Assembly: GCF_036507355.1 (NCBI RefSeq)
Contig: NZ_AP027877.1
From: Escherichia coli
Lineage (GTDB): Bacteria; Pseudomonadota; Gammaproteobacteria; Enterobacterales; Enterobacteriaceae
Length of the DNA: 64,000 nt
Direction: 5' to 3' (one strand)
Positions 5,452 through 55,414 of the stretch are shown piece by piece (position 1 is the first letter of the stretch; every line of letters begins with the position of its first letter). The position numbers and the translations under genes are program-made. The notes under the pieces are model-generated. The model was not told the origin of the DNA and ran no database searches. It saw only the letters and a list, made by a program, of their open reading frames with translations.

Positions 5452-5528
<77 letters not shown>

Positions 5529-5562
5529 TCACCGTACTGCTTTTACTTCATCAAATTTTGAT

Positions 5563-5639
<77 letters not shown>

Positions 5640-5672
5640 TCACCGTACTGCTTTACTTCATCAAATTTTAAT

Positions 5673-5749
<77 letters not shown>

Positions 5750-10234: not shown

Positions 10235-10440
10235 AAAAAAAAGCACCGCAATTAGGCGGTGCTACATTAATCACTATGGACAGACAGGGTAAATGTACAG
10301 GAAGTGAAAAAAGGTAGCTTTGCTACCATGGTCTGAATCGCAGACCAATTGCAAACACAACAACACAACATCACAACCGTAAGCCAAAAGTTCACCAGAA
10401 CACGCATTCCGATAAAACTTTTCGTTCCGGCTCAGGAAGT
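10235..10440 (-). ncRNA. gcvB: GcvB small regulatory RNA
   Basis: Minus-strand 206 nt reading ACUUCCUGAGCCGGAACGAAAAGUUUUAUCGG...GCACCGCCUAAUUGCGGUGCUUUUUUUU, matching GcvB as I recall it; G/U-rich target-binding region; intrinsic terminator; divergent from gcvA. Confidence 0.9.
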
Positions 10441-17552: not shown

Positions 17553-17634
17553 CAGGATTCCTCATCTCGCTTTATTGGCGCTCTGCTAAGGCGGAGAAAG
17601 GAAACCACCGAAGCAGTAGTATTGGTCATTATTT

Positions 17635-17650
17635 GCTAACTCGAGTTAGC
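17635..17650. promoter_or_regulatory. Perfect 16-bp palindrome GCTAACTCGAGTTAGC (candidate operator), copy 1
   Basis: Exact self-complementary 16-mer centred on CG in the fucI / ABC-transporter divergent intergenic region. Confidence 0.5.
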
Positions 17651-17694
17651 TTAGGTTCGTAGGCTTTTTATGCACAACTTTTTTGTTGTTGAAA

Positions 17695-17710
17695 TGTGAG
17701 GGGCTTCACG
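17695..17710. promoter_or_regulatory. CRP-like site TGTGA-N6-TCACG
   Basis: TGTGAggggctTCACG, 9 of 10 matches to the CRP core consensus, lying between the two palindromes. Confidence 0.4.
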
Positions 17711-17873
17711 AGAAGTGGTTAAAATACGATCTCTGTCAAATTATTATTTAGCGGGACAAAAATAAATTTTACGTATAATCATATGTTTATTAGATTTTAA
17801 TGGTTATGCATCACAGTTTTAACTCAAATGATTTGGCTAATTTGTATACCTAAAATAGCTTTAAAAGGCGATC

Positions 17874-17889
17874 GCTAACTCGAGTTAGC
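17874..17889. promoter_or_regulatory. Perfect 16-bp palindrome GCTAACTCGAGTTAGC (candidate operator), copy 2
   Basis: Identical to the copy at 17635-17650; centre-to-centre spacing 239 bp. Confidence 0.5.
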
Positions 17890-18021
17890 AAAATGCGAAG
17901 AATAGATTGATGCGATGAATATTTATTCAAAGGTTATTCGTATCACAGTGGAGATGGCTTTAGTAGCGACGTTTATGCCGTACTTCACATTTTCAGTTTC
18001 TGATTATTGAGGAAAGCTGCA

Positions 18022-19521: not shown

Positions 19522-19524
19522 ATT

Positions 19525-20508
19525 ATGACTATCTCTGTAACCTCTCCAGACAGCAATAATAAGAAAATAAAGATAAATAAAGAACTTTTGATGCGCCTTG
19601 CGCCTCTTTTTAGCTTAATTATATTAGCGCTGTTTTTTAGTTTCAGCTCTCCCTTTTTCTTTAATACCGAAAATATCATGACGATTGCTCTGCAAACGTC
19701 GGTTATCGGCATTATGGCCATTGGGGTAACTTTCGTCATTATTACCGCGGGCATCGATCTTTCATTGGGTTCCGTGGTGGCTTTTTCTGGTGTCGCCGTG
19801 GGGATTTGCGCCACACTGGGCCTGCCGCTGCCAGTGTGTATTATTGCCGGTGTTTTAGCCGGTGGAATGTGCGGCTATGTGAATGGTTTGTTGGTCACTA
19901 AAATGACTATTCCACCGTTTATCGCTACCTTGGGCCTGATGATGTCCGTCAGAGGTATCAATATGGTGATGACCGACGGGCGCGCCATCTATTTTGCCGA
20001 TTACCCGATGTTCAAAACGCTCGCTCAGGGACGCTTGTTTGATGTGCTACCTTATCCTGTTTTCTACCTGGTCATTGTGGCGCTTGTCGGCGCTTACATC
20101 CTGAAGAAAACGGTTATTGGTCGCTATGTCTATGCCGTAGGCAGTAATGAAGTTGCTGCTCATCTTTCTGGTATTAAAGTTCAGCGCGTGAAAATTTTCG
20201 TCTATGCCTTCTGTGGTTTATTAACCGGGATTGCGGGTGTCATTCTCGCTTCTCGTCTCAACTCCGGACAACCGACGGTAGGTGTGGGTTATGAGCTGGA
20301 AGCTATTGCTGCGGTAGTGATCGGCGGAACCAGCTTAATGGGCGGTATTGGCACTATTGGCGGCACAATCATTGGCGCTTTCATTATGAGTGTACTGAAA
20401 AATGGCCTCAATTTAATGGGGGTCTCTCAGTTCTGGCAAATGGTCGCGATGGGCGTAGTTGTGGTCGCTGCCGTTTACCTCGATACATTACGCAAAAAGA
20501 TTCGTTGA
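19525..20508 (+). CDS. Sugar ABC transporter permease (RbsC/XylH-like)
   Basis: 327-aa polytopic membrane ORF starting 4 nt after the ATPase stop with GAGGA RBS. Confidence 0.85.
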   Translation: MTISVTSPDSNNKKIKINKELLMRLAPLFSLIILALFFSFSSPFFFNTENIMTIALQTSVIGIMAIGVTFVIITAGIDLSLGSVVAFSGVAVGICATLGLPLPVCIIAGVLAGGMCGYVNGLLVTKMTIPPFIATLGLMMSVRGINMVMTDGRAIYFADYPMFKTLAQGRLFDVLPYPVFYLVIVALVGAYILKKTVIGRYVYAVGSNEVAAHLSGIKVQRVKIFVYAFCGLLTGIAGVILASRLNSGQPTVGVGYELEAIAAVVIGGTSLMGGIGTIGGTIIGAFIMSVLKNGLNLMGVSQFWQMVAMGVVVVAAVYLDTLRKKIR

Positions 20509-20581
20509 CTTAGGCTCCCTGTTTTATCGGGAAACAACTGCCCTGACGTTAAGGGTGATTCACTCAGAACGGAGTACAACA

Positions 20582-21532
20582 ATGAAAACCAGGCATTTTA
20601 TCTATGCGTTATCTCTGCTGGCTTGCGTAAGTTCCAGCGCACTGGCGAAGGATTTAAATCTTCCGGTTGTTAGTAAAGGTTTCCAACATGAATTCTGGCA
20701 AACCGTAAAAATGGGGACTGAAGCTGCGGCTAAAGAGTTGGGGGATAAAACCAGCTATGTTGGCCCGGCTGATGAAACGCAAATAGCCGAGCAAATTCAG
20801 TTAGTCGAAAATGCGATGGCGCAGAAACCGAATGGCTTGCTTCTGGCAGCCCTCGACGCGAATGCGCTCGCCCCACTGGTAGAAACGGCAAATTCACGCG
20901 GTATCAAAGTGGTGACCTTTGATTCAGGCATCAATTCAGACATTCCGGTGAGTTTTGTCGCCACCAATAACCGTAAAGCAGGTGCTCAGGCAGCTGATGC
21001 CTTAGCCGCGCAGGTAAATAATAAAGGGAAAGTAGGGATTATCGCGCACGTTGCAGGAACATCTTCCGCTATTGAACGCTCGGAAGGCTTCATGGAGCGT
21101 ATGAAAGAAAAATATCCTGACATTAAAGTTTTACCCGTTCAGTACAGCGATGGTGACCCGCAAAAAGCGATGGATAAAACTATCGATATGATTCAGGCCA
21201 ATCCCGATCTTGCTGGGATCTATGGCACCAATGAAGGTTCAACGCTCGGGGTGGCGAATGCCATTGATAGCCAGAATCTGAAAGGTAAGGTGAAGGTCAT
21301 TGGTTTTGATAGTACGGAAGCGATTATTAACTTCCTGAAGAACGGCGTCATTCAGGGCTTTGTTGTTCAGGATGCATACCAGATTGGCTATCAAGGGATC
21401 AAAACGTTGAACGCGGCCCTTTCGGGACAAGCCGTTGAAAAAGAGATCGATATTCCCGTGAAATTTGTTAATGCCGAGAATATTAACACGCCAGAAATCG
21501 ACAAACTCCTGCACCCATTCGGTAAGAAATAA
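20582..21532 (+). CDS. Periplasmic sugar-binding protein (RbsB-like)
   Basis: 316-aa product from ATG 20582 (GGAG RBS); Sec signal MKTRHFIYALSLLACVSSSALA; the six-frame ORF starting at 20459 is an over-extension. Confidence 0.85.
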   Translation: MKTRHFIYALSLLACVSSSALAKDLNLPVVSKGFQHEFWQTVKMGTEAAAKELGDKTSYVGPADETQIAEQIQLVENAMAQKPNGLLLAALDANALAPLVETANSRGIKVVTFDSGINSDIPVSFVATNNRKAGAQAADALAAQVNNKGKVGIIAHVAGTSSAIERSEGFMERMKEKYPDIKVLPVQYSDGDPQKAMDKTIDMIQANPDLAGIYGTNEGSTLGVANAIDSQNLKGKVKVIGFDSTEAIINFLKNGVIQGFVVQDAYQIGYQGIKTLNAALSGQAVEKEIDIPVKFVNAENINTPEIDKLLHPFGKK

Positions 21533-21539
21533 AAAAATT

Positions 21540-21559
21540 GGGGATGAATTTTCATCCCC
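21540..21559. other. Perfect 8-bp-stem hairpin between the binding-protein gene and the kinase gene
   Basis: GGGGATGA-attt-TCATCCCC preceded by an A7 run; no T-tract on the plus side, so it is not a canonical plus-strand terminator. Confidence 0.4.
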
Positions 21560-21585
21560 GTTATCTCCAGCGTCAGGGAGGCTTT

Positions 21586-23166
21586 ATGCACAACGGTTAT
21601 TTTCTCGGTGTCGATGTCGGATCGGCCAGTGTCAGGGCAGGCGTTTACAGTGCCAGTGGCCACAGGCTGGCATTCGCTACTGCGCCCGTCTCCCAGTTTC
21701 GCCCTGGCGGCGAGCGTGTTGAACAGTCTTCGGCGGAGATCTGGCAACAAGTTTGTAAAACGGTGAAAGAGGCGACAGCTTTGGCAGGCATCCCTGGTTC
21801 CGCAATTCGCTCGCTAGGTTTTGACGCTACTTGCTCGCTGGTTGTTCTTGATGAACAAGGCCAGGGTTTAGCTGTTTCGCCCGGTGGATCTGCGAATCAC
21901 GACATTATTATGTGGATGGATCATCGTGCAACTGTCGAGACGGCGCAGATTAACGCGACGAAGGATCCTGCATTGCGCTACGTTGGCGGCGAAGTGAGCG
22001 TCGAGATGGAGTTACCAAAGTTACGTTGGTTGAAGACGCATCTACCGCAAACCTGGCAGGCCGCTCATCGCTTTTTCGATCTGGCGGATTTTCTGGTCTG
22101 GAAAGCAACAGGGCGAGACGTCGCGGGATTATGCACGCTAACGTGTAAATGGAATTATCTGGCTCATGAGCAACGCTTTAGCCATAGCTTACTGGAATCG
22201 ATAGACCTGATCGATATGCTTGAAAGAATTCCTGCCGACATTCTTCCGCCTGGCGCTGCCGTGGGAACATTAACCGCCACAGCTGCTGAAGAGTTAGGAT
22301 TAACGACTAATGTTATCGTGGCCAGTGGCTTGATTGATGCCCATGCCGGTGGCGTGGCGCTGGCTGGCGCGCACCCATCAGGAACGCTGGCATTGATAAG
22401 CGGAACGTCGAACTGCCATATGCTGTGTAGTGAAAAAGAGATATTCACCCCTGGCGTCTGGGGGCCATACTGGTCGGCCATGTTGCCAAATTACTGGCTA
22501 ACCGAAGGCGGGCAAAGCGCCGCAGGGGCGCTGGTGGAGTGGACGCTTCAGGAGTCAGGGGCAAGCGCAAATCTTTTTCACAAGGCGCAGCAACGCGGAT
22601 GTCATCCGATTCAACTGATTAATGAATGGGTAGCCGCCCTGGAAGCTAACGAGTCAGAACCCACACGAAATTTACATGTGCTTGCCGATCATCACGGCAA
22701 CCGTTCGCCACGAGCGCGGCCCGATGCCAGAGGCAGTGTTTATGGCTTAACACTGGAGCGTGGTGAAAGTCAGCTCGCGCGACTTTATCTTGCGACTTTA
22801 CAGGCAATAGCCTTTGGCACCAGACATATTATTGAAACTCTCAGGGAAAATGGGCATACCATTACCCGATTAACATTATGTGGTGGTGCAACGCACAACC
22901 CTTTATGGCTACGCGAATATGCAGACGTGACAGGCTGCGATATCCACCTGATGCAAGAAGAAGATGCCGTTACATTGGGTGCAGCAATTAGCGGCGCTGT
23001 TGCCAGCGGAGCATGGGGGGATTTTACATCTGCGTGTAAAGCAATGGTTGAAGCCGGAGAGGTTATTCAGGTAAATCCACAACGCCGTGAATTTTTAGAG
23101 CGTAAATACCGGGTTTACCTGACGCTTTGGGAGCAACAACAGGCAGTTAACCAACTGATGCAATAA
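21586..23166 (+). CDS. FGGY-family carbohydrate kinase, pentulose (ribulokinase-like) type
   Basis: 526-aa product from ATG 21586 (AGGGAGG RBS); FGGY N- and C-terminal domains (GVDVGSASVR, IIMWMDHRA); distinct from fucK. Confidence 0.8.
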   Translation: MHNGYFLGVDVGSASVRAGVYSASGHRLAFATAPVSQFRPGGERVEQSSAEIWQQVCKTVKEATALAGIPGSAIRSLGFDATCSLVVLDEQGQGLAVSPGGSANHDIIMWMDHRATVETAQINATKDPALRYVGGEVSVEMELPKLRWLKTHLPQTWQAAHRFFDLADFLVWKATGRDVAGLCTLTCKWNYLAHEQRFSHSLLESIDLIDMLERIPADILPPGAAVGTLTATAAEELGLTTNVIVASGLIDAHAGGVALAGAHPSGTLALISGTSNCHMLCSEKEIFTPGVWGPYWSAMLPNYWLTEGGQSAAGALVEWTLQESGASANLFHKAQQRGCHPIQLINEWVAALEANESEPTRNLHVLADHHGNRSPRARPDARGSVYGLTLERGESQLARLYLATLQAIAFGTRHIIETLRENGHTITRLTLCGGATHNPLWLREYADVTGCDIHLMQEEDAVTLGAAISGAVASGAWGDFTSACKAMVEAGEVIQVNPQRREFLERKYRVYLTLWEQQQAVNQLMQ

Positions 23167-23230
23167 GACAAAAGTTGAAAATACTTTTATGATTGTGATT
23201 TGACGTCTGGATGTTAACTGGGAAATACCT

Positions 23231-24229
23231 ATGGCTAAAACAGTAGAGCAGATAGCCAGCGACCTGAATTTATCGGTTACGACCGTGCGACTGGTGCTAA
23301 ATGGAAAAGCGGAACAATATCGAATCAGCGTCAAAACCCAAACGCGTATCAATGAATATGTTGAACACTATGGTTATATCATTAATCATTCCGCTCGCAG
23401 CCTTAAACTTAACAAAACTGATACATTAGGGTTGATTGTTCCCAACATATCCAACGTCTTTTTTGCTACGCTGGCAGAAAAACTTGAACAACGCTGCCGA
23501 CGTTCCGGATATCAACTTACGATCAGTTGTACTTATGATGATGTCGACTATGAAAATAAATTGACGAAAGCATTTATCGCACGAAATGTAGATGGTCTTT
23601 TTATTGTTCCTTCGACGCTGGAGAATCAGCAGCATCATTTACGCAAAATTCGTAAACCAATGGTTTTACTCGACCGTGATTTTAAATATACCGATAATGC
23701 ATTGGTAGAGAGTAATAATATTTCTGGCGGAGAAAAGTTGACACAAAATATTCTTGAGGCCGGGCAGACTCCAGTATGGTTTTTGCTGGGGGATGCCGGT
23801 TTGCCGAGTATCAGCGATCGTCTGACAGGTTATTTGAATGCGTTGGAAAAAAAAGGGATTACCCATCGCGATTGGGTGCGAGAAGGCCCGGTAAATACTC
23901 CGGAAGGCGGCTATGTCATTATGGAAAAACTCATTGAAGAGCAGGGATGTCCGCAGGCATTTATCGCCTCGTCTTTACCTGTGCTTGAAGGCGCTGTCCG
24001 CGCGATTCGCGACCGTCTTGGCGCTGTACCGCCAGAAATCAATATTGGCACTTTCGATGAACATCCCATGCTGGGATTTCTCGCCAACAATGTCTGGTCA
24101 ATGCAGCAGGATGAAAATGCCTGGGCAGAAAAAGCGTTCGAAATGATGTTAAGCGCGATCGAAGAAAGACCAGTCAAAAAAACAGTCAAAGTAGAAATGA
24201 AATTAATTAAGCGCATAAGAAAAAAATAA
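23231..24229 (+). CDS. LacI-family transcriptional regulator
   Basis: 332-aa ORF with N-terminal LacI HTH (VEQIASDLNLSVTTVRLVLNG) and periplasmic-binding-like effector domain; about 43% GC. Confidence 0.85.
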   Translation: MAKTVEQIASDLNLSVTTVRLVLNGKAEQYRISVKTQTRINEYVEHYGYIINHSARSLKLNKTDTLGLIVPNISNVFFATLAEKLEQRCRRSGYQLTISCTYDDVDYENKLTKAFIARNVDGLFIVPSTLENQQHHLRKIRKPMVLLDRDFKYTDNALVESNNISGGEKLTQNILEAGQTPVWFLLGDAGLPSISDRLTGYLNALEKKGITHRDWVREGPVNTPEGGYVIMEKLIEEQGCPQAFIASSLPVLEGAVRAIRDRLGAVPPEINIGTFDEHPMLGFLANNVWSMQQDENAWAEKAFEMMLSAIEERPVKKTVKVEMKLIKRIRKK

Positions 24230-24362
24230 TAATCGCCAAAAGATAATCAGGCTATTGAACAATGATATTCAGTGGCCACCCCTTACTAAAAATAACCCCG
24301 TCTTCATTTGCGGTGCTGTTTTACGCAACAAGGCGAGCTGGAACTGTATCTGGAGAATAGAG

Positions 24363-25010
24363 ATGGAAAGAACACGTTTATCCCGTGAAATAATTGAAAC
24401 CTGTCTGGAAATGACGCGCCTTGGGTTAAATCAGGGGACTGCGGGGAATGTCAGCACACGTTTTGAAAACGGCATGTTGATTACTCCAAGCGGTATTCCT
24501 TATGAAAGAATGACGGAGAATATGATTGTCTATGTTGATGGCAACGGCAAATACGAAGAAGGTAAGATTCCTTCCAGCGAATGGCGTTTCCATATGGCGG
24601 CCTATCAAAGCAGACCGGATGCCAACGCGGTTGTTCACAATCATGCCGTTCATTGCACAGCAGTTTCCATTCTTAACCGACCGATCCCCGCTATTCACTA
24701 CATGATTGCGGCGGCTGGCGGTAATTCTATTCCTTGCGCGCCTTATGCGACCTTTGGAACACGCGAACTTTCTGAACATGTTGCGCTGGCTCTCAAAAAT
24801 CGTAAGGCAACTTTGTTACAACATCATGGGCTTATCGCTTGTGAGGTGAATCTGGAAAAAGCGTTATGGCTGGCGCATGAAGTTGAAGTGCTGGCGCAAC
24901 TTTACCTGACGACCCTGGCGATTACGGACCCGGTGCCAGTGCTGAGCGATGAAGAAATTGCCGTAGTGCTGGAGAAATTCAAAACCTATGGGTTACGGAT
25001 TGAAGAGTAA
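24363..25010 (+). CDS. fucA: L-fuculose-1-phosphate aldolase (class II); N-terminal third diverged from the K-12 sequence
   Basis: 215-aa product from ATG 24363 (GGAGA RBS); residues from about 70 onward match K-12 FucA as I recall it, the first ~70 differ at about 18 positions. Confidence 0.85.
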   Translation: MERTRLSREIIETCLEMTRLGLNQGTAGNVSTRFENGMLITPSGIPYERMTENMIVYVDGNGKYEEGKIPSSEWRFHMAAYQSRPDANAVVHNHAVHCTAVSILNRPIPAIHYMIAAAGGNSIPCAPYATFGTRELSEHVALALKNRKATLLQHHGLIACEVNLEKALWLAHEVEVLAQLYLTTLAITDPVPVLSDEEIAVVLEKFKTYGLRIEE

Positions 25011-33335: not shown

Positions 33336-33353
33336 TGTGAGAGATCTCTTACA
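33336..33353. promoter_or_regulatory. UvrY (BarA/UvrY two-component) box upstream of csrB
   Basis: Perfect 18-bp inverted repeat TGTGAGAGATCTCTTACA about 190 bp upstream of the csrB 5' end. Confidence 0.8.
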
Positions 33354-33535
33354 GACTCTGTAGGAGATCGCCAGGAAATAAGCGAATACTTAAAAAGATA
33401 AGAATCGCTATTTTCATTTAAAAACAACATGTTGCTTGTTAATTCCTAACTTTCATATGAAATTTTCCTTAAGGCATTGTCTGTAAGCGCCTTGTAAGAC
33501 TTCGCGAAAAAGACGATTCTATCTTCGTCGACAGG

Positions 33536-33892
33536 GAGTCAGACAACGAAGTGAACATCAGGATGATGACACTTCTGAAGGACACACCAGGATGGTGTTT
33601 CAGGGAAAGGCTTCTGGATGAAGCGAAGAGGATGACGCAGGACGCGTTAAAGGACACCTCCAGGATGGAGAATGAGAACCGGTCAGGATGATTCGGTGGG
33701 TCAGGAAGGCCAGGGACACTTCAGGATGAAGTATCACATCGGGGTGGTGTGAGCAGGAAGCAATAGTTCAGGATGAACGATTGGCCGCAAGGCCAGAGGA
33801 AAAGTTGTCAAGGATGAGCAGGGAGCAACAAATGTAGCTGGAATGCTGCGAAACGAACCGGGAGCACTGTGAATACAGTGCTCCCTTTTTTT
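33536..33892 (+). ncRNA. csrB: CsrB, CsrA-sequestering small RNA
   Basis: About 360 nt with roughly 18 CAGGAUG/AGGA repeats, ending in the intrinsic terminator GGAGCACUGUGAAUACAGUGCUCCCUUUUUUU; 5' end approximate. Confidence 0.9.
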
Positions 33893-33937
33893 ATTCCTGC
33901 TATCCTTCGCGGCAGTTTTTCTTATTGAGGTTGCTTT

Positions 33938-34267
33938 ATGACCACTCATGACCGCGTTCGTCTCCAGTTGCAGGCGCTTGAAGCGTTACTGCGTGAACAT
34001 CAGCACTGGCGAAACGATGAACCCCAGCCGCATCAATTTAATAGTACCCAACCGTTCTTTATGGACACCATGGAACCACTGGAGTGGTTGCAGTGGGTGC
34101 TGATCCCGCGAATGCACGATTTGTTAAATAACAACCAGCCGTTACCGGGCGCTTTTGCCGTTGCTCCCTATTATGAAATGGCGCTGGCGACGGACCATCC
34201 GCAACGCGCGCTTATTCTGGCTGAGTTGGAAAAACTGGATGCTCTTTTTGCGGATGATGCGAGCTAA
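33938..34267 (+). CDS. yqcC: DUF446 protein YqcC
   Basis: 109-aa ORF translationally coupled to truC. Confidence 0.8.
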   Translation: MTTHDRVRLQLQALEALLREHQHWRNDEPQPHQFNSTQPFFMDTMEPLEWLQWVLIPRMHDLLNNNQPLPGAFAVAPYYEMALATDHPQRALILAELEKLDALFADDAS

Positions 34268-35049
34268 TGCTGGAAATACTCTATCAGGATGAATGGCTGG
34301 TTGCGGTAAATAAACCCTCCGGCTGGCTGGTTCACCGCAGCTGGCTGGATCGCGACGAGAAAGTAGTGGTCATGCAAACCGTGCGTGACCAGATAGGCCA
34401 GCATGTTTTTACTGCTCATCGTCTGGACCGACCAACTTCTGGTGTGTTGTTGATGGGATTATCCAGCGAGGCCGGACGGCTGCTGGCACAACAGTTTGAA
34501 CAGCACCAAATCCAGAAATGTTACCATGCGATTGTGCGCGGCTGGTTGATGGAAGAAGCGGTGCTGGATTATCCACTGGTGGAAGAACTGGACAAAATCG
34601 CTGATAAATTTGCCCGCGAAGATAAAGGCCCGCAGCCAGCAGTGACGCATTATCGCGGTCTGGCGACCGTAGAAATGCCGGTAGCGACCGGACGTTACCC
34701 GACCACGCGCTACGGCCTGGTGGAACTGGAGCCGAAAACCGGACGCAAACATCAGCTTCGCCGACATCTTGCCCATTTGCGTCATCCGATTATTGGCGAT
34801 AGCAAACATGGCGATTTACGCCAGAATCGCAGCGGTGCTGAGCATTTTGGTCTTCAGCGGTTAATGCTGCATGCCAGTCAGTTGTCATTGACGCATCCTT
34901 TCACTGGCGAGCCGCTGACTATTCACGCGGGCCTGGACGACACCTGGATGCAGGCGTTATCACAATTTGGCTGGCGCGGTCTGCTTCCTGAAAATGAAAG
35001 GGTTGAGTTCAGTGCGCCATCGGGTCAGGATGGAGAGATAAGTTCCTAA
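34267..35049 (+). CDS. truC: tRNA pseudouridine(65) synthase TruC
   Basis: 260-aa RluA-family pseudouridine synthase (HRLDRPTSGVLL). Confidence 0.9.
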   Translation: MLEILYQDEWLVAVNKPSGWLVHRSWLDRDEKVVVMQTVRDQIGQHVFTAHRLDRPTSGVLLMGLSSEAGRLLAQQFEQHQIQKCYHAIVRGWLMEEAVLDYPLVEELDKIADKFAREDKGPQPAVTHYRGLATVEMPVATGRYPTTRYGLVELEPKTGRKHQLRRHLAHLRHPIIGDSKHGDLRQNRSGAEHFGLQRLMLHASQLSLTHPFTGEPLTIHAGLDDTWMQALSQFGWRGLLPENERVEFSAPSGQDGEISS

Positions 35050-35066
35050 TCTAGGGAGAAAACGGT

Positions 35067-35516
35067 ATGGCGGAAATTGGTATTTTTGTCGGCACCATGT
35101 ACGGAAATTCGCTGTTAGTGGCGGAAGAAGCAGAAGCAATTCTGACCGCACAGGGCCACAAAGCAACGGTATTTGAAGATCCTGAATTAAGCGACTGGCT
35201 GCCCTATCAGGATAAGTATGTTCTGGTGGTTACGTCCACGACCGGGCAGGGCGACCTTCCTGATAGCATTGTGCCGCTCTTTCAGGGAATCAAAGATAGT
35301 CTGGGCTTCCAGCCGAATCTGCGTTATGGCGTGATTGCGCTCGGCGACAGCAGTTATGTAAATTTCTGCAATGGCGGCAAACAGTTCGATGCCTTGTTGC
35401 AGGAACAGAGCGCTCAGCGGGTTGGCGAAATGCTGTTGATTGACGCCAGTGAGAACCCGGAACCGGAAACGGAATCAAATCCGTGGGTCGAACAGTGGGG
35501 CACGCTGTTGTCCTGA
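35067..35516 (+). CDS. yqcA: Flavodoxin-like protein YqcA
   Basis: 149-aa flavodoxin fold. Confidence 0.85.
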
Positions 35517-35569
35517 TATGTTCAGCGAGCGGTAAATGTCGTTTTAGCGGTGCTGAATCGAATCTTTTT

Positions 35570-35624
35570 AGGCAAATGCCAGTAAAAACTGCTTCATAGC
35601 GCGGATTTTTACTGGCGTTTGCCT
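35570..35624. promoter_or_regulatory. Long imperfect inverted repeat upstream of gudP
   Basis: 19-nt arms AGGCAAATGCCAGTAAAAA / TTTTTACTGGCGTTTGCCT with one mismatch and a 17-nt loop; no adjacent T-tract. Confidence 0.35.
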
Positions 35625-35950
35625 GGAGTCAAGCGATCCATTTCATACTCTTCTTTATTTCTTCGTTTTAACCCTTCCTTTCTTGTTCTTGTTTTCATTT
35701 CCGTGAAGTGGATTCCACCGTCCAGGGCTAATGCCAAAATCGGGCCTCATTGAACGCATTAATGTTGTGTTGTTGCACGGTGAGCCGCTATGGCGCGCTT
35801 TTTATACTGCTATTGCCAGATATAAACACGCGCCGTATTCGGCGAACGACCTATAAAAACGGCAAAAAACACCCTACGTCACCTCTGATTTCCTGGCGAT
35901 GTCGCAGTCCAGAGTGAGCGTGGCTAACGCGAATTTTCAGGAGTGCAACA

Positions 35951-37303
35951 ATGAGTTCTTTAAGTCAGGCTGCGAGCCGTGTGGAAAAACGCACGAATGC
36001 TCGTTACTGGATAGTGGTGATGTTGTTTATCGTCACATCCTTCAACTACGGCGACCGCGCTACGCTTTCTATTGCCGGTTCGGAAATGGCCAAAGATATC
36101 GGCCTTGATCCCGTGGGAATGGGCTATGTGTTCTCTGCCTTCTCATGGGCTTATGTTATCGGGCAGATCCCTGGTGGTTGGTTGCTGGATCGTTTTGGTT
36201 CAAAACGCGTCTACTTCTGGTCGATCTTTATCTGGTCGATGTTTACCTTGCTGCAAGGCTTCGTCGATATCTTTAGTGGATTCGGCATTATCGTTGCCCT
36301 GTTTACTCTGCGCTTCCTGGTCGGGCTTGCTGAAGCGCCATCTTTCCCCGGCAACAGTCGCATTGTTGCGGCCTGGTTTCCGGCGCAGGAAAGGGGAACG
36401 GCGGTGTCGATTTTTAACTCCGCTCAATACTTCGCAACGGTGATCTTCGCGCCGATTATGGGCTGGCTGACGCATGAAGTGGGCTGGTCACACGTCTTCT
36501 TCTTTATGGGCGGTCTGGGCATTGTCATCAGCTTTATCTGGTTGAAAGTCATCCACGAGCCAAATCAATATCCGGGGGTAAATCAGAAAGAGCTGGAGTA
36601 CATCGCCGCGGGTGGCGCGCTGATCAATATGGATCAGTAAAACACCAAAGTTAAAGTGCCGTTCAGCGTGAAGTGGGGGCAGATCAAACAACTGCTCGGG
36701 TCACGGATGATGATCGGCGTTTATATTGGTCAGTACTGTATCAACGCCCTGACTTACTTTTTCATTACCTGGTTTCCGGTTTATCTGGTGCAGGTGCGTG
36801 GGATGTCGATTCTGAAAGCGGGCTTTGTGGCTTCCGTTCCGGCGGTTTGCGGTTTTATCGGCGGTGTGCTGGGTGGGATTATTTCCGACTGGCTGATGCG
36901 CCGCACGGGATCGCTGAACATTGCGCGTAAAACACCGATCGTAATGGGCATGTTGCTGTCGATGGTGATGGTGTTCTGCAACTACGTCAACGTTGAGTGG
37001 ATGATCATCGGCTTTATGGCGCTGGCCTTCTTCGGTAAGGGCATTGGGGCGCTGGGTTGGGCAGTAATGGCAGATACCGCACCAAAAGAGATCAGCGGTC
37101 TTTCCGGTGGCCTGTTCAACATGTTCGGTAACATTTCTGGCATCGTCACGCCAATCGCAATTGGTTATATCGTTGGCACGACTGGCTCCTTTAATGGGGC
37201 GCTGATTTATGTTGGTGTTCATGCCTTAATCGCGGTACTGAGCTACCTGGTGCTGGTGGGCGATATCAAGCGTATCGAGCTGAAACCTGTCGCGGGGCAA
37301 TAA
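35951..37303 (+). pseudogene. gudP: Glucarate/galactarate MFS transporter GudP interrupted by an in-frame TAA at 36638-36640
   Basis: 229-aa ORF (35951-36640) and 215-aa ORF (36656-37303) are in the same frame and together form one 12-TM MFS protein; sequence reads ...INMDQ-TAA-NTKVKVPFSVKWGQ... Confidence 0.85.
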
Positions 37304-37304
37304 G

Positions 37305-38645
37305 ATGACGACACAATCCAGTCCTGTTATTACTGATATGAAAGTCATTCCGGTCGCCGGGCATGACAGCATGTTGCTCAATATTGGTGGTGCGCATAAC
37401 GCATACTTCACCCGCAATATCGTGGTACTCACCGATAACGCCGGGCATACCGGCATTGGTGAAGCACCGGGCGGAGAGGTGATTTATCAAACACTGGTCG
37501 AAGCTATTCCGATGGTGCTGGGCCAGGAAGTTGCGCGCCTGAATAAAGTGGTTCAGCAGGTGCATAAAGGTAATCAGGCCGCCGATTTTGATACCTTCGG
37601 CAAAGGTGCCTGGACTTTTGAATTGCGCGTTAATGCCGTAGCGGCGCTGGAAGCCGCCTTGCTTGACCTGTTAGGTAAGGCGCTGAATGTTCCGGTCTGC
37701 GAACTGTTAGGGCCAGGCAAGCAACGCGAGGCTATTACCGTCCTCGGTTATCTGTTTTATATCGGTGATCGGACCAAAACCGATCTTCCTTATCTGGAAA
37801 ATACGCCGGGCAACCATGAGTGGTATCAGTTGCGGCATCAGAAAGCGATGAACAGCGAAGCCGTTGTGCGTCTGGCGGAAGCCTCACAGGATCGCTACGG
37901 CTTTAAAGATTTTAAACTTAAGGGCGGCGTGTTACCTGGCGAGCAAGAAATCGACACTGTTCGTGCATTGAAGAAACGCTTCCCGGATGCGCGGATTACC
38001 GTTGATCCCAACGGTGCATGGCTGCTTGATGAAGCCATTTCTCTGTGCAAAGGGCTGAATGATGTTCTCACCTATGCCGAAGATCCATGTGGCGCAGAAC
38101 AGGGCTTCTCCGGACGTGAAGTGATGGCGGAGTTTCGGCGGGCGACCGGCTTGCCCGTTGCGACTAACATGATCGCCACCAACTGGCGCGAAATGGGTTA
38201 TGCGGTGATGCTCAATGCGGTAGATATTCCACTTGCCGATCCGCACTTCTGGACGCTTTCCGGTGCAGTCCGCGTGGCGCAGCTTTGCGACGACTGGGGG
38301 CTGACCTGGGGCTGCCATTCTAATAACCATTTCGATATCTCTCTGGCGATGTTTACCCATGTGGGCGCGGCGGCACCGGGTAATCCTACCGCTATCGATA
38401 CCCACTGGATTTGGCAGGAGGGCGATTGTCGCCTGACCCAAAATTCGCTGGAGATTAAAAACGGAAAAATTGCCGTTCCTGATGCGCCCGGTCTGGGCGT
38501 GGAACTGGACTGGGAACAGGTACAAAAGGCACATGAGGCCTATAAACGTCTGCCTGGCGGTGCGCGTAACGACGCAGGCCCGATGCAGTACCTGATCCCC
38601 GGCTGGACCTTTGACCGTAAACGTCCCGTTTTCGGCCGTCATTGA
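37305..38645 (+). CDS. gudX: Glucarate dehydratase-related protein (enolase superfamily)
   Basis: 446-aa ORF, paralogous to the downstream gudD. Confidence 0.9.
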
Positions 38646-38665
38646 TTCTGAAAAAGGACATAAAT

Positions 38666-40006
38666 ATGAGCTCTCAATTTACGACGCCTGTTGTTACTGA
38701 AATGCAGGTCATCCCGGTGGCGGGCCATGACAGTATGCTGATGAATCTGAGTGGTGCACACGCACCGTTCTTCACGCGTAATATTGTGATTATCAAAGAT
38801 AATTCTGGTCACACTGGCGTAGGGGAAATTCCCGGCGGCGAGAAAATCCGTAAAACGCTGGAAGATGCGATTCCGCTGGTAGTGGGTAAAACGCTGGGTG
38901 AATACAAAAACGTTCTGACGCTGGTGCGTAATACTTTTGCCGATCGTGATGCTGGTGGGCGCGGTTTGCAGACATTTGATTTGCGTACCACTATTCATGT
39001 AGTTACCGGGATAGAAGCGGCAATGCTGGATCTGCTGGGGCAGCATCTGGGGGTTAACGTGGCATCCCTGCTGGGCGATGGTCAACAGCGTAGCGAAGTC
39101 GAAATGCTCGGTTATCTGTTCTTCGTCGGTAATCGCAAAGCCACACCTCTGCCGTATCAAAGCCAGCCGGATGACTCATGCGACTGGTATCGCCTGCGTC
39201 ATGAAGAAGCGATGACGCCGGATGCGGTGGTGCGCCTGGCGGAAGCGGCGTATGAAAAATATGGCTTCAACGATTTCAAACTGAAAGGCGGTGTACTGGC
39301 CGGGGAAGAAGAGGCCGAGTCTATTGTGGCACTGGCGCAACGCTTCCCGCAGGCGCGTATTACGCTCGATCCTAACGGTGCCTGGTCGCTGAACGAAGCG
39401 ATTAAAATTGGTAAATACCTGAAAGGTTCGCTGGCTTATGCAGAAGATCCGTGTGGTGCGGAGCAAGGTTTCTCCGGGCGTGAAGTGATGGCAGAGTTCC
39501 GTCGCGCGACTGGCCTGCCGACTGCAACCAATATGATCGCCACCGACTGGCGGCAGATGGGCCATACGCTCTCGTTACAATCCGTTGATATCCCGCTGGC
39601 GGATCCGCATTTCTGGACGATGCAAGGTTCGGTACGTGTGGCGCAAATGTGCCATGAATTTGGCCTGACCTGGGGTTCGCACTCTAACAACCACTTCGAT
39701 ATTTCCCTGGCGATGTTTACCCATGTTGCCGCCGCTGCACCGGGTAAAATTACTGCTATTGATACGCACTGGATTTGGCAGGAAGGCAATCAGCGCCTGA
39801 CCAAAGAACCGTTTGAGATCAAAGGCGGGCTGGTACAGGTGCCAGAAAAACCGGGGCTGGGTGTAGAAATCGATATGGATCAAGTGATGAAAGCCCATGA
39901 ACTGTATCAGAAACACGGGCTTGGCGCGCGTGACGATGCGATGGGAATGCAGTATCTGATTCCTGGCTGGACGTTCGATAACAAGCGCCCGTGCATGGTG
40001 CGTTAA
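38666..40006 (+). CDS. gudD: D-glucarate dehydratase
   Basis: 446-aa product from ATG 38666; enolase-superfamily motifs. Confidence 0.9.
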
Positions 40007-40015
40007 GACAGAAAA

Positions 40016-40046
40016 CCAAAACCGGCTCTGTCAGGAGCCGGTTTGA
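40016..40046. terminator. Bidirectional hairpin terminator between convergent gudD and barA
   Basis: AACCGGCTC-tgtcagg-GAGCCGGTT with T-rich tract on the minus-strand side. Confidence 0.5.
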
Positions 40047-40068
40047 GACTGATGCCAAACACAAAATT

Positions 40069-40166
40069 GCCTGATGCGCTACGCTTATCAGGCCTAAATG
40101 CTTTTTAATTTATTGAATTTAATTGGTTTTGTAGGCCGGATAAGGCGTTAACGCCGCATCCGGCAT
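40069..40166. repeat. Two REP-like palindromes (BIME)
   Basis: GCCTGATGCGCTACGCTTATCAGGCC and GTAGGCCGGATAAGGCGTTAACGCCGCATCCGGCA. Confidence 0.6.
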
Positions 40167-40238
40167 AAACACAGGCACTTTGTCACCAATCTGAAACCAG
40201 CGTCATAAAAAGCCGATTGCTACTCGACAAGACATCCA

Positions 40239-42995
40239 TTACCCGAGAATTTTGCTGGCTTCGCGCGCGACATTATCCATCTCGTCCAACAGTTCCAGCA
40301 GCTCCGGCTCCAAATCTTCTTCTTTAGTACCGCTACGTAACTGTTGTTCGATCAGTTGGCAGAGATTCTTCATACGCGGCACACCGCTATAGCCGCAACT
40401 GCCATGCAGTTTATGAATCAAATCAACCAGGCCTTCCGGGTTTTCTCCAACCAGCTGTTCCTCAACTTTGTTGCGAACTTCAGGCAGGAAATCGAGTAAC
40501 ATTTGCAGCATATCGCGCGCCAGATCGGTTTTTCCTGCTGCCTGGCGTAGTGCCAGTTGCCAGTCGAGGGTCGCATTCGGGTTCACCACAATTTCGTTGA
40601 CTTCGGGCGTCACGACGCGAGAGGAAATACCGCTGCCAGGCTTGTAGCGCAACAGCAAATTATGCAATCGCTCTTCTTCAATCGGTTTCGCCAGATAATC
40701 ACTCATCCCTGCGCCAAGCAGCTTCTCTTTTTGCCCGGCCATTGCATGCGCCGTTACCGCGATAACCGGCGTTTGTTGCTGATGGGGGAGTTGGTGGATG
40801 AGTTCGCAGGCCCGAATGCCATCCATGTCCGGCATTTGAATATCCATTAAGATCAAATCGAACGGCATCTGTTTCGCCCGTTCAACCGCCTGATGCCCGC
40901 TATCGCAAAGCTCCACATGTTGCACCATATCTTCCAGCAATGCGCCGATAAGTTTCAGGTTAGCGGGGTTGTCATCAACCGCCATGACTGTCATTGCCAG
41001 CTTACTTTCATCGGTTACAGGCAAAAGCGTGTTTTGTTTGTGATGACAAAATTCCGTCAGGGCAGGCAACAGGCGCGTAGGTGTTAATGGTTTCAGCAGA
41101 CACGCGCCGATACCATCTTGCTTGAGTTTTTCAGCATTGACTTGTGCATGGCAAGGAAGTGCCAGCATCAGGAAATCGGTCATCGATACCGCTTTCGCTA
41201 ATCGCTCATGTTGCATTGTTAGCGGCTCGCGGAAGGTCACCGCGATGCCTAACAACATCATGTCGTAATGCGCGGGAGGCAGCGCGGAGAACGTTGGGCT
41301 ATAAACCACTTCCAGCGGCGTTTCACTTAAAATATCCAGCGTGCATTGCGCTGCTGCGGAGTTTGGTTCGACATAGGCCAGGCGTTTACCGGCGAGGCAC
41401 TGGGTGGATGGCCCTTCAATAATAATGTTCGGGTTCAGATCGAGATTAATGTGGAACCAGAAAGTTGAACCGCGATTCGGCTGGCTATGGAACGAAATAT
41501 CGCCGCCCATTTCATTAACCAGTTTTTGTGTAATCACCAGCCCCAGCCCGGTGCCACCATGACGGCGGGAAATACTGGCATCAGCCTGTCGGAAGGCCTG
41601 GAATAAGCGCGATTGATCGCGTTCAGGAATACCAATGCCGGTATCCCGAATCTGCACTTCAATCTGCACTTTGGTATTACTCAGCGCACGTTTTTCTACC
41701 AGAATATCAATGTTGCCATTCTCGGTGAATTTAATTGCATTCCCCACCAGGTTAGTGATGATTTGCTGTAATCGCAGTGGGTCGCCGATCACGTTATCAG
41801 GCACGTCGCTTTTAATATTGAGCGTCAGTTCCAACCCTTTATCGTGAGAAGAATGTGCCAGCAGAGTAACGACTTCATCCAGCGTGCTGCGTAGTGGGAA
41901 TGGAATACTTTCCAGAATCAGCTTACCTGCTTCCAGTTTCGAGAAGTCGAGAACATCATTAATAATTGCCAGCAAATTATTTGCCGAACGTTCAATCGTA
42001 TTCAGGTGATCGCGCTGCGTTGGTGTTAATTCTGTTTTCAGCGTCAGGCGGGTAAAGCCAATAACACCATTCAGTGGTGTACGCAGCTCGTGTGACATAT
42101 TTGCCAGAAACTCGGATTTAATACGCGCCGCTTCCTGGGCGCGCTTTTTCGCCAGATCCAACTCAACGTTCTGAATTTCCATCTGCTCCAGCGTTTCACG
42201 CAGATCGGACGTCGCCTGGTCGATATTGTGCTGCATCTCTTCGTGATAAGCAGCCAGCGACATTGCCATCGAGTTGATACCGTTTTTCAGCATATCCAGC
42301 TCGCCGAGCATAAATCCTTCCACCCGGCTGTCGAGTTGCCCGCGACGGATGCGGTCGACGGTATTCACCATGTTGCGAATCGGACCGGTTACATCGCGCA
42401 TTAAGCGCCAGCCAAAAATAAGCGCAATACCGATACAAAACAGCATCATCACGCTGGAAATAAAGATCTCTTTATATTGCTGCAAGCGAACCGATTTAAG
42501 ATCCAGCTCAAGCGCAATATATCCCAACATATTTTGACTATTTTTGGCATCGCTACTGGGCGATTCGTCGGGGGAGTAACTCTCAGAAATAATCGGCGTG
42601 CGGAGGATCATAATATCGCCGTCACGAGTGACAGTGAGCTGGCGAGGAAACGGCACGTTGCTGCCGAGCTGCATTGATGAGGGATCAAGATGAAAATTGG
42701 AGGTGACAAAGAGTCGGTTATTTTCATCATAAACCGAAATCGCGCGAACAATATCGGAATGGCGACGATGCAGTACGCTTATTAACTGACCGATAGATTC
42801 GCGATTTTGCAGGCTCATGCCATATTCAGTAGAAACTGCAAGCGGCTCAATAATGCTGGCACCGGCATCTTCCAGTTGACGCTGCAAGTCGTTATAGCGA
42901 TGCACGACGAAAAAGATACTCAGCAATAAACCAATAAGGACGGTCGGTGCCAGGATCAGAATCATCATGCGTGCGCGCAGGCTGTAGTTGGTCAT
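40239..42995 (-). CDS. barA: Hybrid sensor histidine kinase BarA
   Basis: 918-aa ORF with TM, HAMP, HisKA/HATPase, receiver and HPt domains. Confidence 0.9.
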
Positions 42996-51410: not shown

Positions 51411-51430
51411 GACTGACTTAACGTCTTAAT

Positions 51431-51461
51431 AAAAAACCCGCTTCTTGAAGCGGGTTTTTTT
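51431..51461. terminator. Rho-independent terminator downstream of eno (bidirectional)
   Basis: AAAAAACCCGCTTC-ttga-GAAGCGGGTTTTTTT. Confidence 0.8.
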
Positions 51462-51465
51462 ATCT

Positions 51466-51828
51466 TCACATTTTGAGTTCAGTAAGCAGAGCGATAACAT
51501 TAATAAATGTTATTCCCACCAGGATAAGTATCCGAACAATTTTTCTGCTATTCCTTACATTGCTGACAAAATCATTATGAGAAATATTGGATGAATATTT
51601 TCGTTGATGGACTTTATAATCCCAAAGAAGATCATTTGCCTCAGGTATTGGGTTAATCAGACTGTAGATGCAAAAGTATACAAACGTATCTAAAGCAAGC
51701 AGTGATGTTATCAGTTGAAATAATTCATCGCCCTGGAAGGCTTTATTAAGCCAAATCATTCCAGCAGCACCGAATAAGCCAAATACAAATTTACTTAATC
51801 GCGGATGATTCGCTAAAATCTTACTCAT
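51466..51828 (-). CDS. Small hypothetical membrane protein (120 aa, 2-3 predicted TM helices), last gene of the LemA/TPM operon
   Basis: ORF with AGGGAAGG RBS 36 nt downstream of the TPM gene stop; very AT-rich (about 35% GC). Confidence 0.5.
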   Translation of the reverse strand: MSKILANHPRLSKFVFGLFGAAGMIWLNKAFQGDELFQLITSLLALDTFVYFCIYSLINPIPEANDLLWDYKVHQRKYSSNISHNDFVSNVRNSRKIVRILILVGITFINVIALLTELKM

Positions 51829-51863
51829 ATTTTCTTACCTTCCCTGTAATCTGTTTTTAAGTC

Positions 51864-52766
51864 TTACCATCTTCCTGACGCGCCGCCACCGCCGGATGAA
51901 CCGCCGCCACCGCTGAAATTGTCATTGTCGAAAGAGGATGAAGAGGAAGAAGACGATGACGAATGCCAGGAGGCCGAGTTGCTTCTTTCGTAGCGTGACG
52001 GTCGGTTTGCACTACGCATTGAATCACGCACCTTTCTGCCGAAAGGTGTGAAAGCGATAGCTACGACCAGGAATGGAGTGGCGAAACATAATAATGTGGC
52101 AAGAATTCCCCAGCTCCCGCTATATCCAGCGATGGGAAGTACAAAGGCCAGTATTATGGCAGCAAAGCAAATCACTCCCAGCGTTTTGATATATCCTCTG
52201 GCAGAAATAAACGTCAGTACTATCGCCCAGACTAACAGAGCCCACCAACCGCTAAAGGGTAAAGGATGATCGGGCGATGTATTATTGACTAAATCATTTC
52301 CTGATAGTCGGGTTTCAATATCACCAATACCTTGTTGCAAGCCGACAGCAAGGTCGCCCTTTTTAAACGCTGGAATAATACTGTTGCGTATAATTTGCCC
52401 GGACTGCGCATCCGTCAGAATACCCTCAAGTCCGTAGCCAATTTCAATATGTACTGTATGATCTTGCTAGGCAACTACCAGTAAAATACCGTCATCAAGA
52501 TTCTTATGACCGGGCTGCCAACGCTCGAATACCCGCGTTGCGTACTGCTCGATGGTTTCGTCGCCTGTTGTATCAACCACTAACACGACCAACTGTGCGT
52601 GTTTTTTTTGTGTCAGGGCTTTAATCTGGTTGGTCAGGGTGTTTACTTCGCTGTTTGTTAATGTGCCGGTTAAGTCATTCACATACTTGGGTGATTCAGG
52701 TACTGGAATTTGTGTGGCAAACACAGATGAACAGAAGAAAGCCGTAAGGAAGATAAAATTTCGCAT
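51864..52766 (-). pseudogene. ygcG: TPM-domain (YgcG-like) protein interrupted by an in-frame TAG at 52467-52469
   Basis: N-terminal ORF (signal peptide MRNFIFLTAFFCSSVFA plus start of TPM domain) and C-terminal ORF (TM segments plus Gly/Ser-rich tail) are in the same frame, separated only by the amber codon; sequence reads ...LLVVA-TAG-QDHTVHIEIGYGLEG... Confidence 0.75.
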
Positions 52767-52779
52767 AGAACTTCCCCGC

Positions 52780-53400
52780 TTAATGAGCATTAGCATTCTG
52801 GCTAAAATCTATTGTTGGGGCTTTACTTACTGCGGCGACATCATCCGGCAAATAATTTTTCTTTGGTGTGTAATCCATGACCTTTGCGGTTAATACAGCG
52901 GGGAATTTGCGGATAGTGACATTATATTGTTCAATGGCTTTAATATATCTTCCTCGCGCAACGGCAATTCTATTCTCACTTCCTTCGAGCTGTACCATTA
53001 AGTTTTGATAGAGCTCTTGAGCCTTTAACTCAGGGTAACGCTCACTAATTATCGTTAACTGACCGAGAGTGCGAGTCACCTGCGCCTGGGCCTGTTGCCA
53101 GGCTTGTAATTTTTGTGCATCTCCGGGAGCTTGCTGAAGATCGCTGCTGGCGCGATTAGCCTGGCTACGAGCCAATGTTACGGCTTCCAAAACGTCTTTT
53201 TCATGGTTGGAATAACCTTTAATACTGGCGACAAGATTAGGAATAAGATCGGCGCGACGTTGATATTGATTTAATACCTCAGACCAGGAGGCGTTAACCT
53301 GCTCATCATAGGTTTGAATATCGTTATATCCACAGCCTGATAAATTGAAAATAAATATAATTAAGATGAATATCCTGAGCATGTTTAAATCCTTTTTCAT
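52780..53400 (-). CDS. LemA-family protein (probable lipoprotein)
   Basis: 206-aa LemA-family ORF with N-terminal signal and lipobox LSGC; stop lies 13 nt upstream of the TPM gene start. Confidence 0.8.
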   Translation of the reverse strand: MKKDLNMLRIFILIIFIFNLSGCGYNDIQTYDEQVNASWSEVLNQYQRRADLIPNLVASIKGYSNHEKDVLEAVTLARSQANRASSDLQQAPGDAQKLQAWQQAQAQVTRTLGQLTIISERYPELKAQELYQNLMVQLEGSENRIAVARGRYIKAIEQYNVTIRKFPAVLTAKVMDYTPKKNYLPDDVAAVSKAPTIDFSQNANAH

Positions 53401-54419: not shown

Positions 54420-54565
54420 TATAGAATTATTTTAAATATTTGCCTTTTTAATCAATGGGTTAAGTGCTCTTTAACATAATGGATGTGTTGTTTGTGTGAT
54501 ACTGTAAAGTTGGTAGATTGTGACTGGCTTAAAAAATCATTAATTAATAATAGGTTATGTTTAGA
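54420..54565 (+). promoter_or_regulatory. AT-rich CRISPR leader of array 1
   Basis: AT-rich tract ending ...GGTTATGTTTAGA immediately 5' of the first repeat. Confidence 0.6.
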
Positions 54566-54777
54566 GAGTTCCCCGCGCCAGCGGGGATAAACCGGAGAGA
54601 GTCCAGTATCAATCCCGCGATCCGCAGAGTTCCCCGCGCCAGCGGGGATAAACCGCCGTTGCGGATCTTGAGTAGTGCCACGTCACCGAGTTCCCCGCGC
54701 CAGCGGGGATAAACCGGGTACAAAAGAGGCCCCATTCTGGCAGGGCTCGAGTTCCCCGCGCCAGCGGGGATAAACCA
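54566..54777 (+). CRISPR. Type I-E CRISPR array: 4 repeats of 29 bp, 3 spacers of 32 bp
   Basis: Repeats GAGTTCCCCGCGCCAGCGGGGATAAACCG at 54566, 54627, 54688 and 54749 (last ends in A); spacers GAGAGAGTCCAGTATCAATCCCGCGATCCGCA, CCGTTGCGGATCTTGAGTAGTGCCACGTCACC, GGTACAAAAGAGGCCCCATTCTGGCAGGGCTC. Confidence 0.95.
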
Positions 54778-55241
54778 CCATATAACCCGTTATCTCTTTC
54801 TCAAGTTTTTATATTAGCAGTACTTGTAATAAGCAACATATCCACGTAACACCTCATGTTCAAAATAGTTCCCCATGCCAGATAAGTTCACAATTATCGA
54901 TACAAAAAATTAAATTTAATCAAAGTGTTATTTGTATAATTCTTAAGCCGTTAAGAAATTTTAATCTATTATTTTTTTAATATTAATTAATGCCTGTTAA
55001 TTTTTTCTTTAGTATAACAGTGTATTTTTTAAGCTTGTTATTCATTGATTAAGTAATAAATCTGGAAATTTGTCTTTGTTTTGAGGCTAATGAGTGGTTT
55101 TACATAACCGCCTCTATACGCTGTTGATGAATAGTTCTTATGAATAAAGATATCCAGTTCATACTTTAAGTGAAAATTGATAAAGTGCGATTCGTATTGT
55201 CTTTTATTCTAAAGACATCGAGTGTAGTTAATATTCCTTGT

Positions 55242-55368
55242 AAAAACAGGGATAAACCGAACTAGTTAAAGTTTTTATTATGTTCCCTGCATCAGCGGGG
55301 ATAAACCGGACTTGTTATCATTTTTTAAGTTGTCGAACTTATGTTCCCCGCGCCAGCGGGGATAACCA
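55242..55368 (+). CRISPR. Degenerate type I-E CRISPR array remnant: 2 decayed repeats plus a partial repeat, 1 full-length spacer
   Basis: Partial repeat ...CAGGGATAAACCG ending 55259; ATGTTCCCTGCATCAGCGGGGATAAACCG (55280-55308); 32-bp spacer GACTTGTTATCATTTTTTAAGTTGTCGAACTT; ATGTTCCCCGCGCCAGCGGGGATAACCA (55341-55368). Confidence 0.8.
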
Positions 55369-55414
55369 TTCAGGTATGTTCAGGCCGGGCAGTTTCCCGC
55401 CCGGTTTTCCTCAC

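Follow-up and report, generated by a model that had tools for sequence, protein, structure and literature searches.

The barA-csrB region of an Escherichia coli-type chromosome: a nearly perfect UvrY box, an intact csrB and a BarA identical to that of K-12

Here we describe the portion of a 64,000-nucleotide (nt) stretch of Escherichia coli DNA (contig NZ_AP027877.1; this whole stretch is called the window) that carries csrB, the gene of the small RNA (sRNA) CsrB, together with the UvrY box located upstream of it and with barA, the gene of the sensor kinase BarA. It is almost certainly the ordinary chromosomal syd-csrB-yqcC-truC-yqcA-gudPXD-barA-rlmD region of an E. coli-type genome (E. coli or Shigella), with parts of the known BarA/UvrY-CsrB circuit in it. 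A previous reading of the sequence only had recognized both barA and csrB in the window, had regarded them as known and not as novel biology, and had proposed comparison with a reference annotation as the way to check it. These statements were borne out: both genes are present, the box is the footprinted UvrY site, csrB is close to that of K-12, and BarA is the K-12 protein. In the K-12 reference annotation csrB (b4408) is collinear with the gene described here, BarA is identical and the order of the genes is the same. This is an already known textbook locus, and its confirmation adds no new biology. Other statements of that reading, on the symmetry of the box, on the number of GGA motifs, on distances and on the preservation of the circuit, had to be modified to different extents.

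The UvrY box upstream of csrB

The 18-mer TGTGAGAGATCTCTTACA occurs a single time in the window, and no second site exists in it at two mismatches or fewer. The generic GacA/UvrY-box pattern, TGTRAGN6CTYACA, likewise finds this segment as its only match in the window at one mismatch or fewer. When the window was shuffled with preservation of its dinucleotides, 0 of 100 shuffles gave any match to the 18-mer. The centre of the box lies at -183/-182 relative to the start of csrB (33527). Both this position and the sequence are those of the UvrY site that was defined in E. coli by ChIP-exo and DNase I footprinting (PMC4682653), and binding of UvrY to the box has been demonstrated for K-12 (PMC4682653). 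Furthermore, an extra half-site, TGTAGGAGA, stands 5 bp downstream, as is known beside the csrB box of E. coli and Salmonella (PMC4682653). Altogether, the segment presents what characterizes a UvrY/SirA/GacA box, namely an 18-nt inverted repeat at about -180 of a Csr/Rsm sRNA gene, and the UvrY box that had been proposed upstream of csrB is indeed there.

The same reading had called the box a perfect palindrome, which is not the case. The 18-mer differs from its own reverse complement at 2 positions, that is, 8 of its 9 pairs match and one is mismatched; the paper that defined the site in E. coli terms the repeat "nearly perfect" (PMC4682653).

The csrB small RNA gene

The Rfam covariance model of CsrB (RF00018) matches positions 33536-33895 of the plus strand with 384 bits, the gathering cut-off being 71 (E = 1e-111), and the match spans the full model (positions 1-356 of 356). 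The ends of the gene were set by aligning the syd-yqcC intergenic region with that of K-12 MG1655 (b4408, 369 nt). Of the 22 GGA triplets in the RNA, 21 are within the Rfam span. By comparison, mononucleotide shuffles of the RNA, which keep its composition, give an expectation of 11.8 +/- 2.7, and the background across the window has a mean of 4.5 per 360 nt. Nine GGA belong to exact CAGGA(T/A/C)G elements, and 12 to elements with at most one mismatch. In the predicted minimum free energy fold, 17 of the 22 would be single-stranded, nine of them in hairpin loops and eight otherwise unpaired. The richness in GGA pointed out by the sequence-only reading is confirmed, but its count of about 18 motifs is not: 18 is the number of CsrA subunits bound per CsrB in the literature, where "about the same number" of repeat elements is given (PMC7652899). 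The covariance score, the repeated and mostly unpaired GGA motifs and the Rho-independent terminator at the 3' end are the features by which members of the CsrB/RsmB family are recognized.

Over its 369 nt, the gene matches csrB of the complete genome of E. coli 14EC033 with 100% identity, and identity is at least 99% in 4,442 of 5,425 E. coli genomes. It is as long as csrB of K-12 MG1655 (b4408; Zere et al. 2015, PMC4682653) and, like it, is flanked by syd and yqcC; the two also share the box, placed at -183/-182, the half-site TGTAGGAGA, the promoter-proximal region and the terminator. The K-12 RNA differs from that of the window at three positions, 33578 C>A, 33833 A>T and 33866 G>A (K-12 base first); the last of them replaces a G-U pair of the K-12 terminator stem by an A-U pair. 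These three substitutions, as well as five others located upstream of the gene and described below, all occur in other E. coli strains. Considering the identity with the 14EC033 gene, the three substitutions relative to K-12 and the literature (PMC7652899), we infer that this CsrB would bind and sequester CsrA.

The RefSeq records of E. coli annotated with the Prokaryotic Genome Annotation Pipeline (PGAP) that were inspected, including those of PapRG-06-5, 2452 and ET625, have no csrB feature, whereas the curated K-12 record has one. Checking against the annotation of those records would therefore overlook csrB; to locate the gene in PGAP-annotated E. coli records, a covariance model or the K-12 sequence is needed.

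The sensor kinase gene barA

The uninterrupted open reading frame of barA encodes a protein of 918 amino acids without a single difference from K-12 BarA (b2786, NP_417266.1). At the nucleotide level there are 17 differences from the K-12 gene, and the fact that 17 of 17 are synonymous implies continued purifying selection. Six Pfam domains, all with matches that exceed the cut-offs, follow each other from the N- to the C-terminus in the order that is typical of BarA/GacS kinases: sCache_4 (31-177), HAMP (198-248), HisKA (293-357), HATPase_c (404-518), Response_reg (670-780) and Hpt (828-910). The three phosphorelay residues, H302, D718 and H861, are all found.

The neighbours of barA are those of K-12, and the barA-rlmD intergenic region is identical to its K-12 counterpart. 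The gudD-barA intergenic region differs at 16 of 232 positions, and a palindrome similar to repetitive extragenic palindromic (REP) elements (GCCGGATAAGGCGTT...) is located in it, at 40132-40167. When the 9.7-kb span from the box to barA was used as query, a median of 19 places was matched per E. coli genome, probably because of this REP-like palindrome.

The same box in other Gammaproteobacteria

When species-representative genomes were scanned for the exact 18-mer, at least 120 stretches were found, with 121 occurrences among the matches listed, to which the counts of this paragraph refer; around nine matches would be expected by chance across the whole collection, according to our own arithmetic. 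Almost all of the matches listed come from Enterobacterales, Vibrionaceae, Shewanella and other Gammaproteobacteria. In 116 of the 121 occurrences, a stretch that is dense in GGA (13 or more per 300 nt) lies no more than 600 nt away; in these 116 loci, the 300 nt richest in GGA begin at a median of about 170 nt from the box centre. The box is oriented as in the window in 85 of them and reversed in 31.

Sixteen loci were sampled for a search with Rfam, which found CsrB beside the box in 8, namely in E. albertii, Pectobacterium, Serratia, Edwardsiella, Pantoea, Dickeya and two loci of Vibrio breoganii. Three other sampled loci with a GGA-dense stretch, two of Shewanella and one of a metagenome-assembled gammaproteobacterium, did not reach the gathering score of RF00018, and no Csr RNA was found in the five sampled loci that lack such a stretch. 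The two Shewanella loci below the gathering score have 22-23 GGA per 300 nt adjoining the exact box. A group II intron is located about 3.6 kb from the CsrB of one of the two V. breoganii loci (L011).

The logic of these loci is also that of GacS/GacA-RsmB/Y/Z and VarS/VarA-CsrB1-3, in which a kinase acts on a FixJ/NarL-type regulator, the latter on an upstream palindromic box, and the box governs a GGA-rich sponge RNA. The same 18-mer precedes GGA-dense RNAs in Vibrio, Photobacterium, Shewanella, Pantoea, Dickeya and Serratia, among others, in either orientation in the GacS/GacA and VarS/VarA taxa. In these taxa, however, and unlike in the window, the kinase gene lies away from the sRNA gene and several sRNA paralogues exist per genome. 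The presence of the box beside GGA-dense RNAs across orders indicates a deeply conserved cis-element, a conservation that is already established in the literature (PMC4682653, PMC7652899).

Gene order and the proximity of barA and csrB

The genes are arranged in the order queF (minus strand), syd, csrB, yqcC, truC, yqcA, gudP, gudX, gudD, barA (minus strand), rlmD and relA, which is the K-12 order read on the opposite strand and agrees with how RefSeq annotates the E. coli genome that matches best. From the 3' end of csrB to the stop codon of barA there are 6,343 nt; counted from the beginning of the box to the start codon of barA, the span is 9,660 nt. The distance of less than 7 kb that had been attributed to the pair is correct for the nearest edges but too short for the whole span. 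The two genes are convergent, and those between them serve tRNA pseudouridine synthesis, a flavodoxin and the use of glucarate; to our knowledge, none of them has a link to Csr.

One of these intervening genes, gudP (35951-37303), carries a CAA>TAA nonsense mutation, Q230*, at 36638-36640, which splits it into open reading frames of 229 and 215 amino acids. In 5,426 complete E. coli genomes, no match exists for any 28-mer across the mutated base, and the truncated GudP protein has no exact counterpart on record. The mutation is also found in three public assemblies, reached through the variant of GudX, that are 99.95-99.98% identical to this region of the window; it is therefore real, and gudP is a lineage-private pseudogene and not the product of a sequencing error.

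Could the closeness of barA and csrB be functional by itself, for instance as a selected linkage between the gene of a sensor and a downstream target? The span is certainly stable within the species, since 5,413 of 5,426 complete E. coli genomes keep at least 80% of the 9.7 kb in one place. Moreover, if a BarA orthologue outside E. coli is defined by at least 60% identity and by its location on the sRNA side of the box, barA is found 2.3 kb from the box in E. albertii, at about 4.6 kb in Cedecea and in two species of Enterobacter, at 5.1 kb in Kluyvera and at 7.9 kb in E. asburiae. This range of 2.3-7.9 kb may be taken in favor of a linkage, but the spacing shifts with the presence or absence of gudPXD: in E. 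albertii this block is missing between csrB and barA, and barA consequently lies only about 1.7 kb beyond csrB. The convergent arrangement, with 6.3 kb of unrelated genes in between, also argues against a functional linkage, and so does the action in trans of UvrY, the mediator, which is encoded at a distant locus. Beyond the family, the box lacks a neighbouring barA in all 11 loci of Vibrionaceae and Shewanella whose flank measures 7.5 kb or more, and in two loci of Erwiniaceae as well. A selected linkage therefore seems to us improbable. We also reject it as a general trait of the system, given that it is confined to loci of Enterobacteriaceae, at variable distance. We read the proximity of barA and csrB as an inherited gene order of Enterobacteriaceae, and neither as an operon or a case of co-transcription nor as a functional cluster.

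The csrB promoter and the completeness of the circuit

The steps by which these parts would work together are known from K-12 (PMC4682653, PMC7652899) and are transferred here to the genome under study. Short-chain carboxylates, formate and acetate among them, would induce the autophosphorylation of BarA, and the phosphate would be relayed from H302 to D718, then to H861 and finally to UvrY, encoded elsewhere in the genome. Phosphorylated UvrY would bind the 18-nt inverted repeat at -183/-182 and, together with DNA bending mediated by integration host factor (IHF), would activate the weak csrB promoter. The resulting CsrB of 369 nt would expose some 18-22 GGA sites in its loops and unpaired segments and would sequester roughly nine CsrA dimers, with the consequent release of mRNA targets from the control of CsrA. 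In turn, the decay of CsrB is controlled by CsrD and RNase E (PMC4682653, PMC7652899).

A scan with the sigma-70 consensus found no strong promoter upstream of the gene, which fits an activator-dependent promoter; a candidate weak one was noticed by eye (Table 1). Positions 33447-33577 are identical to K-12 and cover the second crosslinking zone of UvrY, from -56 to +25.

Several points nevertheless weigh against the view that a complete and working circuit is found here. To begin with, uvrY is not in the window, where the sole tblastn match of K-12 UvrY is the receiver domain of BarA, at 29% identity. Neither is csrA, since a CsrA probe gave no tblastn match in the window. The genes uvrY, csrA, csrC and csrD are absent from the K-12 annotation of the region that is syntenic with the window. 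In addition, the parts present are known in this genome from their sequence alone, and their binding and expression would be expected by analogy with K-12. Finally, the putative IHF site is altered. In K-12, the IHF consensus WATCAANNNNTTR is matched perfectly by two overlapping copies at -105..-90, which lie on opposite strands. In the window, each copy deviates from the consensus once, the base affected being the T of ATCAA (33424 T>A and 33435 A>C). The segment from the box to the promoter contains no further candidate for the IHF consensus at one mismatch or fewer.

These two changes belong to the five upstream substitutions relative to K-12 mentioned above, which are clustered at -119 to -81 (33408-33446), between the UvrY box and the csrB promoter. 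This segment is a polymorphism hotspot among E. coli strains. Exact copies of the upstream allele exist in 412 complete genomes of E. coli, O157:H7 among them, and about a quarter of the genomes (1,383 of 5,426) share its core. Being so widespread, the five substitutions were rejected as a sign of a broken or novel circuit; the allele is a frequent natural polymorphism and as such no evidence of a defect. A dependence of csrB on IHF has been reported (PMC4682653), and the allele of the putative IHF site might lower or even abolish the roughly 10-fold IHF dependence of csrB transcription, a possibility that we consider unlikely. If it were true, there would be natural E. coli lineages with differing set-points of CsrB and hence differing activity of CsrA. 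The polymorphism would then be a possible source of natural variation in Csr signalling, and one that can be tested cheaply.

As uvrY and csrA lie outside it, the window displays two of the four core parts, and the functioning of the whole circuit would have to be presumed from them. The assertion that the circuit is preserved here is reasonable and stands as far as the box, csrB and barA are concerned, all of them intact, but it goes further than the window allows. It might be that these local parts are intact and the circuit is nonetheless non-functional, through the loss of uvrY, csrA or another factor encoded elsewhere. Such losses can occur in host-restricted lineages rich in pseudogenes. 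The location of uvrY and csrA outside the window leaves room for this, the lineage-private nonsense mutation of gudP lies close by, and with even the best-matching complete E. coli genomes the window shares only 97.3-99.2% identity. On the other hand, the exclusively synonymous changes of barA relative to K-12 imply continued purifying selection, csrB and the box are unchanged, and nothing indicates a loss of uvrY. A non-functional circuit is for these reasons very improbable.

We found no point in support of a box that matches by chance or of a csrB that is a decayed copy, and both are as good as ruled out, the former by the shuffles, by an expectation of about 2e-6 for an 18-mer in 64 kb (our own arithmetic) and by the conservation of the box-to-sRNA arrangement across species and orders, the latter by the full-length match of 384 bits and the complete identity with the csrB of a complete genome.

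Table 1. Features of the window: circuit parts, intervening genes and other RNA genes
Feature	Position	Strand	Description	Basis
UvrY (GacA-type) box	33336-33353	unstranded	18-nt near-palindrome TGTGAGAGATCTCTTACA	exact match; identity with the footprinted site
Extra half-site	33359-33367	+	TGTAGGAGA, 5 bp downstream of the box	read from the sequence
Putative IHF site region	33422-33437	unstranded	AAACAACATGTTGCTT; in K-12, AATCAAAATGTTGATT	comparison with the IHF consensus
Candidate weak sigma-70 promoter	33492-33520	+	TTGTAA, 17-nt spacer, GATTCT, 6 nt to +1 (33527)	by eye, inference
csrB	33527-33895	+	sRNA gene, 369 nt, 22 GGA	Rfam match; alignment with K-12 b4408
csrB intrinsic terminator	33860-33892	+	strong; 11-bp stem, 4-nt loop, T7 run	terminator scan; Rfam alignment
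yqcC, truC, yqcA	33938-35516	+	intervening genes outside the circuit; 0-2 amino-acid changes vs K-12	open reading frames; K-12/RefSeq order
gudP (pseudogene), gudX, gudD	35951-40006	+	intervening genes outside the circuit	open reading frames; K-12 comparison
barA	40239-42995	-	tripartite hybrid sensor kinase, 918 amino acids, uninterrupted	open reading frame; K-12 comparison; Pfam
metZ/W/V counterparts	5455-5749	-	three tandem tRNA genes	RNA gene scan
ES036 (CssrF)	7177-7219	+	sRNA match	Rfam
GcvB	10235-10440	-	sRNA, 199 bits	Rfam

Other features of the window

The identity of the window with K-12 is about 98.4-98.5% over the two longest collinear blocks, which amount together to 44.6 kb; beyond 53.3 kb the blocks become shorter, with identities of 92-97%. 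Several segments depart from the K-12 chromosome. One of them, of 6.8 kb (17565-24392), is located at the K-12 position of fucP and has no K-12 counterpart; the annotation of a matching E. coli genome assigns to it a sugar ABC transporter (ATP-binding, permease and substrate-binding proteins), a carbohydrate kinase of the FGGY family and a regulator of the LacI family. Positions 1-25000 of the window are covered to at least 80% in only 225 of 5,426 genomes.

A second segment without K-12 match, of 1.9 kb (51420-53347), occupies the position of ygcG, and in other E. coli genomes LemA-family and TPM-domain genes are annotated at this place. Furthermore, a junction at 58455 corresponds to a deletion of 1.25 kb relative to K-12, with the loss of ygcW. 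A short CRISPR array of type I-E style lies at 54565-54777 and comprises 4 repeats of about 29-30 nt (GAGTTCCCCGCGCCAGCGGGGATAAACCG) at a spacing of 61 nt; three degenerate repeats follow at 55230-55369, about 450 nt past the array.

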